DNA of 64,000 bases from Escherichia phage ECBP2. The stretch lies in sequence record NC_018859.1. One strand, 5' to 3'. This document shows, piece after piece, positions 8,851 to 48,099 of the stretch. How positions within the stretch are numbered: position 1 is the stretch's first letter; each line of letters begins with the position of its first letter. Under the pieces are notes generated by a model. It was not told where the DNA came from, did no database searches, and worked only from the letters and a program-made list of their open reading frames with translations. A program made the position numbers and the translations under genes.

Positions 8851-9377
8851 CAGTTGACAGTGTAACTGTTAGTCCTGCGTCTGTTGCTAGTCTTCAGACG
8901 GGGGCTACTCGGCAGTTCACTGCAAGCGCGGAGAAAAGTGATGGTTCTACCGAAACAACTGGCTTTACTTGGTCAGTGACAGGAGGTGGTTCTATCACTC
9001 AGTCTGGTTTGTATACTGCTCCGAGTGCGGCTCAATCCACTGATGTGTCCATTACTGCAACATTAGAAGATGTTTCTGGTACAGCAACCATTTCTGAAAT
9101 TGTTGCTCCTGCCCCTACCATCGTATCTCGTGGTCCAATCGCAGATAAGGTAGGCGGTTCTACTACAGCTTTCACTACAATGTTTACCGTTACCAATTCA
9201 GCTGCTTCTAACTATACTTTCGTAGTAACTCCTCCGGGAGCTGGTTCTGTAAGTGCTGCCGGTCTTCTGACCTTGGCTGATGCTGCTTCTGGTGCTGTAA
9301 GTGTTAAAGCCACCCACTCTACGGTTTCGAGTGTTACGGCTACTTGTGAATTTACAGGTGTAACTCCAAAAGAGTAA
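8832..9377 (+). CDS. capsid C-terminal extension reached by -1 frameshift; Ig-like (Big_2-type) decoration domain
   Basis: Slippery heptamer G_GGA_AAG at 8832..8838, four codons before the capsid stop; the -1 frame reads GKGGSVTVDSVTVSPASVASLQTGATRQF... to a stop at 9377 and has no own start or RBS. Confidence 0.6.
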   Translation, partial: GKGGSVTVDSVTVSPASVASLQTGATRQFTASAEKSDGSTETTGFTWSVTGGGSITQSGLYTAPSAAQSTDVSITATLEDVSGTATISEIVAPAPTIVSRGPIADKVGGSTTAFTTMFTVTNSAASNYTFVVTPPGAGSVSAAGLLTLADAASGAVSVKATHSTVSSVTATCEFTGVTPKE

Positions 9378-33100: not shown

Positions 33101-33692
33101 AGAGATCTCTCCGTGTCTGTGCAATACTGTACTCTAAATACTCCACTGCCTCTTCTACAGAACCATCATTAAAGAGAAGATAGGTTGAAAGGTTCGTGCC
33201 TTCAATATAGGAACGAGAGTCTCCTTCAAAAGTACATCCATCCCGATAAATCTGAATTACTCGAACATCGAAATGCTTTTCCAGTTCTTCAACTTCTGCT
33301 TTGAATCCACCATCAGAGAAAACGATAACATCGTTCTGTCCTAGCAGTTGTTGTTGTTGAATGCTGCTAACAGCAAGTTTACCCATGCAGGTATCCCCAA
33401 ACATTGGCTTCAGATAGTTCTCACTAGTTGAAATCATCAAATCTCGAACTGACTTACCGCCCCATTCAGGACGGTTATGTTCTTTCCACTCACGGTCGTT
33501 GTACAGCTCCATGAACTCATGAAGAGGGAGACCTAATGCAGCAGCAGCCACTCGATACATAGGCTCCTTAAAAGCCTTTACATGAGGTCTAAACTCATCG
33601 TTACCGAGTGTCTTCTCTAACCAAGAATTAGCGATTGTATCTTTACCACAACCCGGTGGTCCATTCAGAATTACTACTAATGGTTTACTCAT
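33093..33692 (-). CDS. P-loop kinase (putative deoxynucleoside monophosphate kinase)
   Basis: Walker A GPPGCGKDT at residues 11-19; start overlaps the upstream stop (TAATGA). Confidence 0.5.
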   Translation of the reverse strand: MSKPLVVILNGPPGCGKDTIANSWLEKTLGNDEFRPHVKAFKEPMYRVAAAALGLPLHEFMELYNDREWKEHNRPEWGGKSVRDLMISTSENYLKPMFGDTCMGKLAVSSIQQQQLLGQNDVIVFSDGGFKAEVEELEKHFDVRVIQIYRDGCTFEGDSRSYIEGTNLSTYLLFNDGSVEEAVEYLEYSIAQTRRDLYA

Positions 33693-34342
33693 TATTGAAT
33701 CATCCCTTGAAGATCTTCTTTATCAAAGTGCTTCTCTACTACCGCTTCATACAGATCACGATTCTCTGCATAACGGCGATAGAAAGTTCCGTGTGAAATT
33801 CCCAGCTCCTGCTGGATGTGATCATGAGGTATTCCAAGGAAGAGCATAGAGAACATGCTTGCCATTTTCTTGGTATCCATAATATCACTTAAGTCTTGGA
33901 AGAAGAAAAAGATTCTAGATTCCAAGAATGGGTCTCCAGTAGAGTCATGCTTATCCATCGCAATCTCTAAAGGACTTTCCCACGAGTTCATCTCAGGAGG
34001 TCTAAACATATCAGCCTCTGGAATAGAGTAGATACGTCGGTCTCCAACTGTCTGACGGTTAGAACGAATTGACCAGATGATATTCTTAACACGATAAGTC
34101 ATGTGCTCAATATCTTTTTCATCAGTGAGCAGAAGTTCTTCTTGCTTTGCAAACACAAAACGCCAAGCGTTCAGTAACACTTCCTGAGCAACATCCTCTG
34201 CTTCGTGATAATCTTTAATGTCATACATAAAATACTTATGCACAACTTTCCAGTTCTCCCGATAGAATTCATCGAAGGTTGGATAATACTTAATAGGAAT
34301 GCCATGAATACGATAGCGTGTAGGTGTTGTCTTTTTCTTCAT
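33692..34342 (-). CDS. sigma-70 family (ECF-like) sigma factor
   Basis: Region-2-like [14 protein letters not shown] and region-4 HTH-like [23 protein letters not shown]; RBS AAGGACGA. Confidence 0.6.
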
Positions 34343-34366: not shown

Positions 34367-34591
34367 TTAAACTACGCAGAATAAATACATAGCCGTTTCA
34401 GGGCAAGGGATGGCTGTCTGAATGCCACTCACTTTAATCCACATATCCTCTTCAGAGTCATAATAGGCCCAATAGGATTGATCTCCATCTACAAAGAACT
34501 TAAAGGTTCGTCCCCAAATCTGGTTGTTATACTCCCATACTGCATGAAATTGAGTAACACCTTCTGGTATTGTAAGTTCCGCTCTGATCAT
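34367..34591 (-). CDS. hypothetical protein
   Basis: 74-aa ORF. Confidence 0.4.
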   Translation of the reverse strand: MIRAELTIPEGVTQFHAVWEYNNQIWGRTFKFFVDGDQSYWAYYDSEEDMWIKVSGIQTAIPCPETAMYLFCVV

Positions 34592-34848: not shown

Positions 34849-35080
34849 AATGCATCTCTTTGTAAATAGTTTCTGTGTTCTTCTTCCAGTTTGATAAACC
34901 AGTTAGAACTTTCTGAGCTACTTCATCAGCAGCCTTAGCTCTCTCTATCTCTATCTCTTGCTGTTTCTTCTCTTGGTCAAGAGCATTACTATCATTTCGA
35001 TATTGCTCAAACTTCATACCACCAAAGAAAACCAGAGCTGTAAAGATTAAGAAGCCGATATTATTTTGAAGCTTTTCCAT
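34733..35080 (-). CDS. i-spanin (Rz-like)
   Basis: N-terminal TM helix IGFLIFTALVFFGG followed by a coiled-coil region; ATG at 35080 follows GGAG (ORF-track GTG start at 35104 lies inside a terminator hairpin). Confidence 0.55.
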   Translation of the reverse strand: MEKLQNNIGFLIFTALVFFGGMKFEQYRNDSNALDQEKKQQEIEIERAKAADEVAQKVLTGLSNWKKNTETIYKEMHYEKTKPVFYNVCASDEFVSLFNERQQQAASALTNKPKS

Positions 35081-35093
35081 TTTAACTCCAACG

Positions 35094-35115
35094 AAAAAAG
35101 CCACCCGAAGGTGGC
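35094..35115 (-). terminator. rho-independent terminator (UUCG loop)
   Basis: On the - strand: GCCACC-TTCG-GGTGGC followed by TTTTTT. Confidence 0.55.
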
Positions 35116-35139
35116 TAAGCTATTACAAGGAGAGATTCA

Positions 35140-35880
35140 TTAGAAAGGGCTGTCATCTTCTTCAAAGGTAGATTGCGGCTCTTCATTAATAGTAGGGATA
35201 CTTGGAGTCGCGTCTTTCTGTTCAGTGTCAGAAGCGCGAGTAACTTCACGACCGGCCAGAGGAATGTTTTTAGCATCGTTAGCTTGAGTCAGAAGGTTAC
35301 GTTGGAATGGAAACATAGCTTGATAAGCAGCCAAGTTGGCGTCAGTTTCAGCGTACGGTTCGAAGAAGATAAGGTCGCTACGAGGAGCACCTACTGCATC
35401 ACGATACTTGGTCGGGATTGGAGTGATGCTCTTGATGGAGTTTTTCTTCTCACCAGCTTTGTTGGTGTAAGAGTTAACTAGAATGTTGACAGGCTGACCA
35501 AGCAGCATATCTTTGAACCAACCCAAATCACCTTTCAGTGCTTGAACACTTGGGTCGATCATTTTAATTAGGTTCAGAATACCAGAGTTCTTAGCTCGTG
35601 GGTTTACATCGAAGGATTTAAACTGACAAGCAGGACGTGGGTCCAATGCCTTACCATCACTATCTGTACCAGTTGCGTCAACACCAATCAGTTCAAATGC
35701 CAAGTCCATACGGAAAGCTGGGTTCTTAGGAGTAACTGCTTTGGTCTTAGGGTCAATCCAAGGGTCACGATTGTGAACACCTAAACCTACTACACGAACA
35801 ATTCGTGCTTCGTACTCGCCATCAGGGATTACATCGTAGTTGGATTTACGGGATACAGACAGTTCAGGGATCATAGACAT
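35140..35880 (-). CDS. single-stranded DNA-binding protein (T7 gp2.5-like, putative)
   Basis: 246 aa ending in the acidic tail STFEEDDSPF with C-terminal Phe; RBS AAGGAA. Confidence 0.45.
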   Translation of the reverse strand: MSMIPELSVSRKSNYDVIPDGEYEARIVRVVGLGVHNRDPWIDPKTKAVTPKNPAFRMDLAFELIGVDATGTDSDGKALDPRPACQFKSFDVNPRAKNSGILNLIKMIDPSVQALKGDLGWFKDMLLGQPVNILVNSYTNKAGEKKNSIKSITPIPTKYRDAVGAPRSDLIFFEPYAETDANLAAYQAMFPFQRNLLTQANDAKNIPLAGREVTRASDTEQKDATPSIPTINEEPQSTFEEDDSPF

Positions 35881-35939
35881 ATTAATATTTCCTTATATAA
35901 ATTTAAGATTGTTGCTCTCTTTGAGCGGTTGGTATACTA

Positions 35940-35948
35940 TATACATTA
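35940..35948 (-). promoter_or_regulatory. TAATGTATA promoter-like motif
   Basis: Exact motif on the - strand about 60 nt upstream of the SSB start, inside a 350-nt ORF-free region. Confidence 0.35.
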
Positions 35949-36010
35949 CACCTATACAGATAAGGTTCTATTATACTATAACCTTTTTGGTAGTAGATAA
36001 CAGTAAGTAG

Positions 36011-36019
36011 TAATGTATA
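36011..36019 (+). promoter_or_regulatory. orphan TAATGTATA motif on the + strand (possible ncRNA or antisense promoter)
   Basis: Exact motif with no + strand ORF downstream before 36229. Confidence 0.25.
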
Positions 36020-36228
36020 TATGGTATAGTTAGTAAAACTATTGCACGGGACCGACGACTATAAGGCGCGGACAACCACCTCTCATAAGTTTGTTAGAAA
36101 TTGAGAGACTACCGGAAGGGCAGGAGACACCTGCGAGATAAAAATAGAGAATTAAGGAAATCCTTGATTTAGGTTGAGGACTCCTAGGACTTTGATTCTC
36201 TATTAAAATCAAAAGAAAACTAATTAAC

Positions 36229-36825
36229 TTACCATTCAATAAACTGATTTAGATTAGTATACTTAACTTCTCTCTGAAACTGAAGATTAGATTCTCTCTG
36301 TTTAGTAAGAAGATTAAGTTCATCTTCCTTTCTTTTATCAAACTCTTTTCTAATCTCTTGCAGAGACACAGCTCTGTAATCAATTTGTTCCATAGAAGTA
36401 CAAAAGTATCTCCAATCTTTGATAGTAGAGTTATGAGTATGAGCATAGATATTATACTTTCCTCTCATTTCATCAGAGTGAATAGGAATATGAGTTACCC
36501 AAAACTCTTTGTACTTATAATCACCACTGATGTGTCTAAAGACTTTCATCATATCAGGGAGAAGTTCTAATCTGTCATGATTTCCTAAGACAAGATGTTT
36601 CTCTCCTTTTACTTCAGCGATGATATCAAGGGCATACTTTTCAAACACCCAATCACCGGTAAAGAAAGTTTTATCACGTTTAGTAACATGGTCAAACGCT
36701 GCTAAGATAGCTTTGTCGTGTTCTTCAATACTACTAAACCTCTTCCTAAAGCTACAGATGTTACGATGGCCTAGGTGACCATCACCTGCAAAATAAACTT
36801 CAGCCATTCTCGTATGTGTCCTCAT
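36229..36825 (-). CDS. calcineurin-like metallophosphoesterase
   Basis: GDGHLGH, GNHD and HTH motifs; start uncertain (MRTHTR at 36825 or MAEVYF at 36807). Confidence 0.65.
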   Translation of the reverse strand: MRTHTRMAEVYFAGDGHLGHRNICSFRKRFSSIEEHDKAILAAFDHVTKRDKTFFTGDWVFEKYALDIIAEVKGEKHLVLGNHDRLELLPDMMKVFRHISGDYKYKEFWVTHIPIHSDEMRGKYNIYAHTHNSTIKDWRYFCTSMEQIDYRAVSLQEIRKEFDKRKEDELNLLTKQRESNLQFQREVKYTNLNQFIEW

Positions 36826-48066: not shown

Positions 48067-48075
48067 TATACATTT
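48067..48075 (-). promoter_or_regulatory. AAATGTATA promoter-like motif
   Basis: 8/9 match to TAATGTATA on the - strand just upstream of the 48047 start. Confidence 0.25.
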
Positions 48076-48099
48076 GAGAGTTATCATATCTACTACCAA

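Follow-up and report, generated by a model that had tools for sequence, protein, structure and literature searches.

We examined the 348-nt gap at positions 35881-36228 of a 64,000-nt stretch (hereafter, the window) of Escherichia phage ECBP2 (NC_018859.1). On balance, we favor the explanation that this gap combines a divergent promoter region with an unannotated small RNA gene, for which an antisense and insulating mechanism resembling that of lambda OOP RNA would be the most likely one. The structural part of this explanation, namely that a real and separately transcribed small RNA exists, appears likely from sequence comparison. The predicted RNA runs on the + strand from ~36026 to ~36205-36210 (~180 nt here and ~155 nt in phage phiEco32), downstream of a candidate promoter that we call P+. 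As predicted, this RNA is phage-encoded, lies at an operon boundary and matches no described family, and P+ is apparently unreported. A sequence-only reading of the window had proposed that a + strand motif in the gap might be the promoter of a small RNA, non-coding or antisense, and had named conservation of the region in related phages as a check. The proposal is backed by comparative evidence (promoter conservation, covariation and the + strand fold), and the region is present in 97 of the 97 related records, that is, those with a close homologue of gene 40, the gene downstream of the gap on the - strand.

The window belongs to a phiEco32-like coliphage (Gordonclarkvirinae). The 2.2 kb around the gap matches 97 phage records at 83-96% identity, all of which are Escherichia or Shigella podophages of the Gordonclarkvirinae (Kuravirus, Suseptimavirus) in the phiEco32 group. 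In phiEco32, which serves as a model in this respect, host RNA polymerase is redirected by the phage's own sigma factor, gp36, together with the co-factor gp79. The gap had been described as far longer than the other spacers, which is broadly right: in the annotated phiEco32 genome, only two of the 128 gaps (median: 7.5 nt) exceed the homologous one (315 nt), both of them in the early-gene region.

The promoter pair in the gap

TAATGTATA is a single-element promoter for host RNA polymerase carrying gp36 of phiEco32 (consensus tAATGTAtA), with transcription starting 6-8 bp downstream of the element (PMC8948821). Six gp36 promoters have been published, located before genes 6, 13, 26, 40, 58, and 68 (PMC4331800; PMC4281155; PMC8948821). 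Shuffles predicted 0.69 perfect copies of TAATGTATA, but the window contained five, a number that none of 100 shuffles attained, and the chance number calculated from the shuffle rate for one strand of the gap was ~0.002. Two of the five copies are in the gap, at 35940-35948 (-) and 36011-36019 (+), exactly where they had been reported earlier, and together they form a perfect 12-nt inverted repeat, GTAATGTATATA, at 35938-35949 and 36010-36021 with 60 nt between. Apart from the + strand copy in the gap, each perfect copy in the window lies 25-45 nt ahead of a ribosome-binding site (RBS) and an ATG. phiEco32 likewise has five perfect copies, corresponding to P13, P26, P40, P58, and an extra + strand copy at 36704, whereas its P6 and P68 are one-mismatch versions. 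The - strand copy in the gap is the known P40, because it fronts the homologue of phi32_40, and gene 40 is the first gene that it serves.

The + strand copy, P+, is a perfect match to the gp36 consensus element and a predicted target of the gp36 holoenzyme. The motif was intact in 22 of 23 distinct sequences collected from phage records, IMG/VR, and metagenomes, including phiEco32 (36704). P+ resembles the published gp36 promoters in having the same perfect element, is extended to GTAATGTATATA exactly as P40 is, and shares TTGGTAGTAGATA with P68 at the same spacing; it differs from them in pointing against the surrounding gene cluster and in having no downstream gene. Whereas P40 stands before a middle or late gene, as expected of a gp36 promoter, P+ is followed by no + strand open reading frame (ORF) of at least 30 aa. 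This agrees with the earlier statement that no such ORF follows the + strand motif, as there are only two mini-ORFs with TTG starts (20 and 23 aa), neither conserved. Coding downstream of P+ was rejected, given 1-nt and 2+1-nt indels and no conserved start. The 66-aa, TTG-start ORF on the - strand (36039..36239), which had been dismissed as spurious, also has its frame broken by 1-nt and 2+1-nt indels among relatives.

Additionally, TTGGTAGTAGATA occurs twice per genome in the window and in phiEco32, once ahead of P+ and once, at the same spacing, before P68 (48087, -; region 48067-48099). It is conserved except in the relatives that carry an insertion between the two promoters of the gap (the myPSH2311/ES17 group and several metagenomic contigs), which read TGGTAGTATATC. 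Two otherwise unrelated promoter regions thus share an extended architecture, which is good evidence that both are used, and suggests a separate gp36 promoter type, comprising P68 and P+, in which an additional contact or an activator site lies upstream.

Structure and distribution of the predicted RNA

The sequence downstream of P+ is non-coding and conserved, and folds on the + strand into four domains, designated H1 to H4 (coordinates in Table 1). We aligned 18, and later 23, distinct sequences. H1 begins within one base of the predicted 5' end; a hairpin at the 5' terminus stabilizes an RNA against RNase E entry. A conserved pentamer, TTGCA, follows H1. H2 exists in two unrelated versions: version A (~68 nt) is carried by the window and by the MN05/ES17/myPSH2311 group (10 of 97 records), whereas the shorter version B (~43 nt) is found in the remaining relatives, including phiEco32. 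Because the aligned close relatives TH43 and E20-1 carry version B, H2 has been exchanged by recombination. The 3' core (36112-36207), comprising H3, an A-rich linker, and H4, is near-invariant, with just five or six variable positions.

In H4, the direct repeat AGGACT occurs at 36177-36182 and 36186-36191. Most phages read AGGGACT(N3)AGGGACT, whereas the window, Paul, TH43, XT32, and L036 read AGGACT(N3)AGGACT; both copies lost one G together, which is a hint of one factor reading both. Five conserved GGA motifs were counted within ~100 nt of sequence, most of them in predicted stems or stem-loop junctions; a sponge for CsrA of the CsrB kind would display many GGA motifs in hairpin loops. The inverted repeats that had been pointed out in this region are also present: GAGAAT and ATTCTC, at 36147-36152 and 36195-36200 (one base off the positions given earlier as approximate), are part of a longer repeat, AATAGAGAATTAA / TTGATTCTCTATT, at 36143-36155 and 36192-36204, and AAGGA and TCCTT lie at 36154-36158 and 36161-36165. 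The modelled internal fold of H4 is tentative.

Evidence for structure favored the + strand. The region folded with a z-score of −3.3 as the + strand against −2.2 as the - strand. For 15 version-B sequences, the consensus fold reached −40.75 kcal/mol on the + strand (structure conservation index, SCI, 0.90) versus −30.17 kcal/mol on the - strand (SCI 0.79), a difference that arises because G-U pairs turn into A-C mismatches on the - strand. In H1, the 23 sequences covaried from UA to GC (3) and from CG to UA (4) or AU (2), together with a GC/GU pair at 13:10, and 98.6% of the cells were paired; none of 500 shuffles reached the covariation score, which collapsed in slid controls. The G-U pairs of H1 fit the + strand only, as do three G-U pairs that extend the H4 stem. 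Version A of H2 contains one compensatory UA/CG pair.

Each genome carried a single match to a covariance model of the core. The model had no match at the syntenic loci of 7-11, Proteus J3S, GAP52, Aeromonas LAh_8, and PJNS034; the first four have the sigma gene in synteny and 0-100 nt at the position of the gap, and PJNS034 has a 200-nt gap there. In the search against Rfam, which includes 6S RNA, phi29 pRNA, self-cleaving ribozymes, riboswitches, and CsrB/RsmZ, nothing in the 64 kb reached the gathering threshold, and permissive matches in the window and phiEco32 were chance hits (E ≥ 0.1) to small nucleolar RNA, microRNA, and internal ribosome entry site models. 6S-like and phi29 pRNA-like RNAs were rejected, with no model match and no pairing of the 5' end with the 3' end, and CsrB/RsmZ had no Rfam match. 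ARAGORN found no tRNA or tmRNA gene in the whole window or at 10 related loci. When the RNA was compared by blastn with 5,426 E. coli genomes, nothing matched, and PLSDB plasmids yielded one chance match; a host small RNA is therefore excluded as its source. IMG/VR yielded four known phage genomes only, and a metagenome scan added six contigs, all from close relatives. Two 20-mer matches in bacterial genome contigs failed the covariance model and were set aside as chance. The pattern ATAGAGAAT-N30-60-ATTCTCTAT occurred at 77 loci in viral contigs, which, beyond the four known phage contigs (L018-L021), were treated as chance palindromes.

The shared terminator and possible roles of the RNA

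The predicted RNA faces a convergent operon whose last gene, in this phage, encodes a calcineurin-like phosphoesterase. The mirror image of H4 on the - strand starts 24 nt past the phosphoesterase stop codon (~15 nt past the gene 41 stop in phiEco32) and has a 10-bp closing stem followed by a U5 tail (AUUCUCUAUUUUUAUC), with a folding free energy of −15.4 to −16.8 kcal/mol. This hairpin contains the inverted repeat that had been pointed out earlier. It lies just before P40 and, together with its U-tract, is probably where the upstream middle operon, transcribed from P58, terminates and has its 3' end. H4 itself folds with −21.4 kcal/mol on the + strand, compared with −15.4 kcal/mol on the - strand. 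The simplest reading is that one two-way terminator would end both the convergent operon and the small RNA. H4 resembles bidirectional intrinsic terminators in its A-tract, hairpin, and U-rich tail, in lying near a stop codon, and in standing between a convergent operon and a candidate small RNA gene, but it differs in being a 62-nt branched, AU-rich domain rather than a short GC-rich stem, and its + strand U-tract is poor (UAUUU/UAUU).

On predicted ends for both transcripts, the RNA overlaps the 3' end of the - strand transcript (~36138) by ~70 nt. It would thus share with OOP its own promoter, convergence, and an overlap with the 3' end of the opposing transcript. The likeness to lambda OOP extends to being a short non-coding RNA, convergent to a coding operon, with a hairpin end, which is predicted here. 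The differences are its length (77 nt for OOP vs ~155-185 nt here), its control by a phage sigma factor, an overlap made up of terminator and 3' untranslated region (UTR) rather than coding sequence (unless there is read-through), and the location of most of the RNA (H1-H3) outside the overlap, where it is conserved for reasons that an antisense role leaves unexplained. In the mechanism that we propose, gp36 would appear in the middle phase and host RNA polymerase would start at ~36026 and stop near 36205-36210 at the shared two-way terminator, with hairpins protecting both RNA ends. Over its last ~70 nt, the RNA would have perfect complementarity to the mRNA 3' ends of the upstream operon, on which it would act as a cis-antisense RNA, as OOP does. 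Convergent transcription would also reinforce termination before P40, thereby insulating the gene 40-sigma operon. We tentatively rank this combination of cis-antisense action and insulation as the most likely mechanism, based on the anatomy of the locus, i.e., the ~70-nt complementarity and convergent transcription at a shared terminator before P40.

Several observations weigh against this explanation as a whole. Covariation amounts to a few events among closely related phages, and neither H3 nor H4 covaries; these two never vary and are therefore neutral as evidence of structure. The core is 92% identical to that of phiEco32 where the median 99-nt window is 79% identical, which places it in the top 5.4% but not at the very top. 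Furthermore, an ordinary terminator after gene 40 is as conserved as the RNA core, so that conservation alone does not prove RNA function; promoter, strand asymmetry, and covariation carry the argument for an RNA. In the sole altered copy of the P+ motif, on the metagenome contig ERZ1034915.75 (L031, ~8934-8945), the sequence is TAATATATA, followed by an intact RNA region. H4 is trailed on the + strand by only UAUU(U)AAAA, which makes for weak termination, and a terminator scan called H4 on neither strand; the miss of its - strand mirror is attributable to a hairpin that is long, branched, and AU-rich at its base. An antisense role also leaves the invariant H3 and linkers, which lie beyond the - strand U-tract, unexplained. 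Published gp36 promoters were reportedly found with primers sited in genes, which a gene-less + copy would escape. The + copy is absent from the six published promoters, although the primary papers (Savalia 2008; Pavlova 2012), which lay outside the comparison, may record it.

We also considered, as an unlikely reading, that the gap holds no functional RNA but only DNA-level and - strand signals (P40, the operator in the 5' UTR of gene 40, and the upstream terminator), with the + motif kept as a palindromic partner of P40 for a binding site or supercoiling coupling and the + transcript as a by-product. The two motifs do form an exact 12-nt palindrome pair, H4 with its U5 on the - strand sits where a terminator is expected, and the high conservation of terminators and the lack of covariation in H3 and H4 suit this reading as well. 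On the other hand, H1 covaries, and the G-U pair in 10 of 23 sequences would be an A-C mismatch on the - strand; the consensus fold is ~10 kcal/mol better on the + strand; and the upstream element in common with P68 argues for a working promoter. In addition, the - strand has no evident RNA function in the stretch between its U-tract and P40, which is where H1-H3 are found.

If the RNA exists, a trans-acting, protein-binding role of its invariant core is almost as likely as antisense action and insulation. In its full form, which we consider possible yet rather unlikely, the RNA would serve as a decoy, sponge, or scaffold that binds some protein or ribonucleoprotein. H3, the A-rich linker, and H4 with its five GGA/Shine-Dalgarno-like motifs would be the binding surface, while H1 and H4 would merely stabilize the ends. 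This would fit the invariance of predicted loops and linkers and not just stems, the exchange of the middle domain as a module around a fixed core, the joint change of both AGGGACT repeats to AGGACT in one allele, and the density of GGA motifs. No complementarity of at least 12 nt occurs elsewhere in the window (the longest match, 11 nt, is at chance level), which argues against extended pairing with phage mRNAs, and RNAduplex showed none of 146 translation-initiation regions to stand out convincingly, although this method is unrealistic without accessibility. Conversely, this role has no known partner and no RNA family match, most GGA motifs are in predicted stems rather than loops, and non-coding regulatory DNA is as a rule well conserved among these phages. 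An RNA anti-CRISPR was rejected, as local alignments to the E. coli I-E and I-F repeats scored within the shuffle range.

A replication origin activated or primed by the P+ transcript, in which a purine-rich RNA-DNA hybrid would prime the leading strand into AT-rich DNA, seems quite improbable. The locus is similar to the T7 phi1.1A/B origin, T4 oriF/oriG, and ColE1 RNA II in having a phage-specific promoter without required coding output, structured purine-rich RNA followed by AT-rich DNA, and replication genes (exonuclease, polymerase) in the surrounding cluster. A T7-like replisome (primase/helicase, family A polymerase, 5'-3' exonuclease) is annotated in phiEco32; the + strand is purine-rich at 36050-36199 (AT skew to +0.39, GC skew +0.13 to +0.29), the DNA at 36150-36300 has 25-28% GC, and no longer gap exists outside the early-gene region. 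The invariance of the core would then combine DNA and RNA constraints. Unlike those origins, the locus has no conserved unwinding element or mapped initiation site. The AT-rich DNA downstream is not conserved in sequence between alleles. The element is also absent from sister families with the same replication genes. The relatives 7-11, J3S, GAP52, and LAh_8 have homologous gene 40 and sigma genes but only 0-100 nt at the position of the gap, and lack such an element. Moreover, genes in the window lie on the + strand to ~30.7 kb and on the - strand beyond, and the cumulative GC skew turns near 31 kb, at this switch and not at the gap, following gene orientation only.

The RNA may represent a new class of sigma-dependent phage small RNAs whose core acts in trans in the middle or late phase, either as an origin primer or activator or as a decoy for a host RNA-binding factor, with the middle domain tuning specificity; we regard this as conceivable but distinctly less probable than the antisense and insulating explanation of the gap. 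All six mapped gp36 promoters front genes, and a gene-opposed seventh that makes a structured RNA would, if true, add a non-coding output. Such an RNA would be a handle on the start of replication, on insulation of the gene 40-sigma operon, or on the use of RNA against host factors in phiEco32-like phages, a poorly studied but therapeutically used group.

Gene 40 and other features around the gap

The sequence-only reading had placed a gene for a single-stranded DNA-binding protein (SSB) downstream of P40, and this label could not be confirmed. The gene 40 product had no Pfam or PDB match, its PHROG family (6599) is of unknown function, and a single-sequence AlphaFold model (pLDDT 38.6) was unusable for checking it. 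Support for the label comes only from a C-terminal ...EEDDSPF tail and from the labels of two homologues in GenBank; an SSB-like protein is possible. In the 5' UTR of gene 40, which hardly varies across the subfamily, a hairpin, GCUC-AAAGA-GAGC (35914-35926), lies in the first 32 nt of the transcript (z = −4.0 in the window and −3.0 in phiEco32). If gp40 is SSB-like, this hairpin could be a translational operator, by analogy with T4 gene 32. The RBS region of gene 40, UAAGGAAAU (35887-35895), recurs in the same sense within H4 (36153-36161), and phiEco32 has UAAGGAA at both places; a repeat of 9 nt is at chance level, although it could mark a decoy for some factor binding to that RBS. Across the subfamily, the terminator that follows gene 40 varies in one loop base only. 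Over 35001-36000, the gene 40 region, the + strand GC skew is +0.05, compared with −0.09 to −0.26 for neighbouring - strand genes.

Table 1. Positions in the window of the elements in and around the gap (predicted elements are named as such in the text)
Feature	Position	Strand	Basis or remark
P+, candidate seventh gp36-type promoter, apparently unreported	36010..36021; core TAATGTATA 36011-36019	+	predicted start 36025-36027
Upstream element TTGGTAGTAGATA, 13 nt	35987..35999	+	11 nt ahead of P+
H1, 5'-terminal hairpin AUAGUU-AGUAA-AACUAU	36026..36042	+	covariation in 23 sequences
H2, exchangeable middle domain	36047..36114	+	version A in the window, Y-shaped, closed by CGG/CCG
H3, hairpin GCAGG-AGACA-CCUGC	36120..36134	+	stem invariant, one loop base A or C
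H4, 62-nt branched 3' domain closed by AAUAGAGAAU / AUUCUCUAUU	36143..36204	+	fold, alignment
U-tract AUUUUUAUC directly after the H4 mirror hairpin	36136..36144	-	sequence
Inter-promoter inverted repeat AAGGTT...AACCTT, then T5	35962..35985		contains the non-conserved - strand TATAAT
P40, published gp36-dependent middle promoter	35938..35949; core TAATGTATA 35940-35948	-	perfect motif, invariant in alignment
Gene 40 5' UTR	35881..35933	-	RBS TAAGGAAAT 35887-35895; block CCGCTCAAAGAGAGCAACAATCTT invariant in 18 aligned phages
Gene 40 homologue, 246 aa, phi32_40 family	35140..35880	-	~86% identical to phi32_40; PHROG 6599
Canonical terminator AGCCACC-TTCG-GGTGGCT + T6	35099-35116	-	between gene 40 and the spanin genes
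Phage sigma factor gene	33692-34342	-	ORF list, Pfam/PHROG search
Calcineurin-like phosphoesterase gene	36229..36825	-	Pfam PF00149, E = 6e-5; PHROG 547, E = 3.5e-54

Between the two promoters, a perfect - strand TATAAT (35975..35970) had been pointed out. It is present in the window, but only in the window's own subgroup, as phiEco32, Paul, and others differ. No good −35 element was seen for it by eye, and it is probably irrelevant. The hairpin at this place is kept in relatives with another sequence (AAGAGTAC/GTATCTT in phiEco32, aligned by eye). In the myPSH2311/ES17 group (myPSH2311 locus ~455-645) and several metagenomic contigs (L031, 8770-8913), an insertion of ~130 nt separates the divergent promoters. 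It contains an unannotated 47-aa ORF on the - strand (MKFNHKYAATEKARAYV...), without a clear RBS.

Further along the - strand, phiEco32 (gene 37) and Paul encode a macrodomain (Appr-1-p processing) protein in the interval from the sigma gene to the spanin genes, where this phage has an unrelated 74-aa ORF (34367-34591; PHROG 30479, of unknown function). phiEco32 also encodes a tRNA-Arg at 66354-66427 of its genome, the equivalent of which is probably located past the end of the window.

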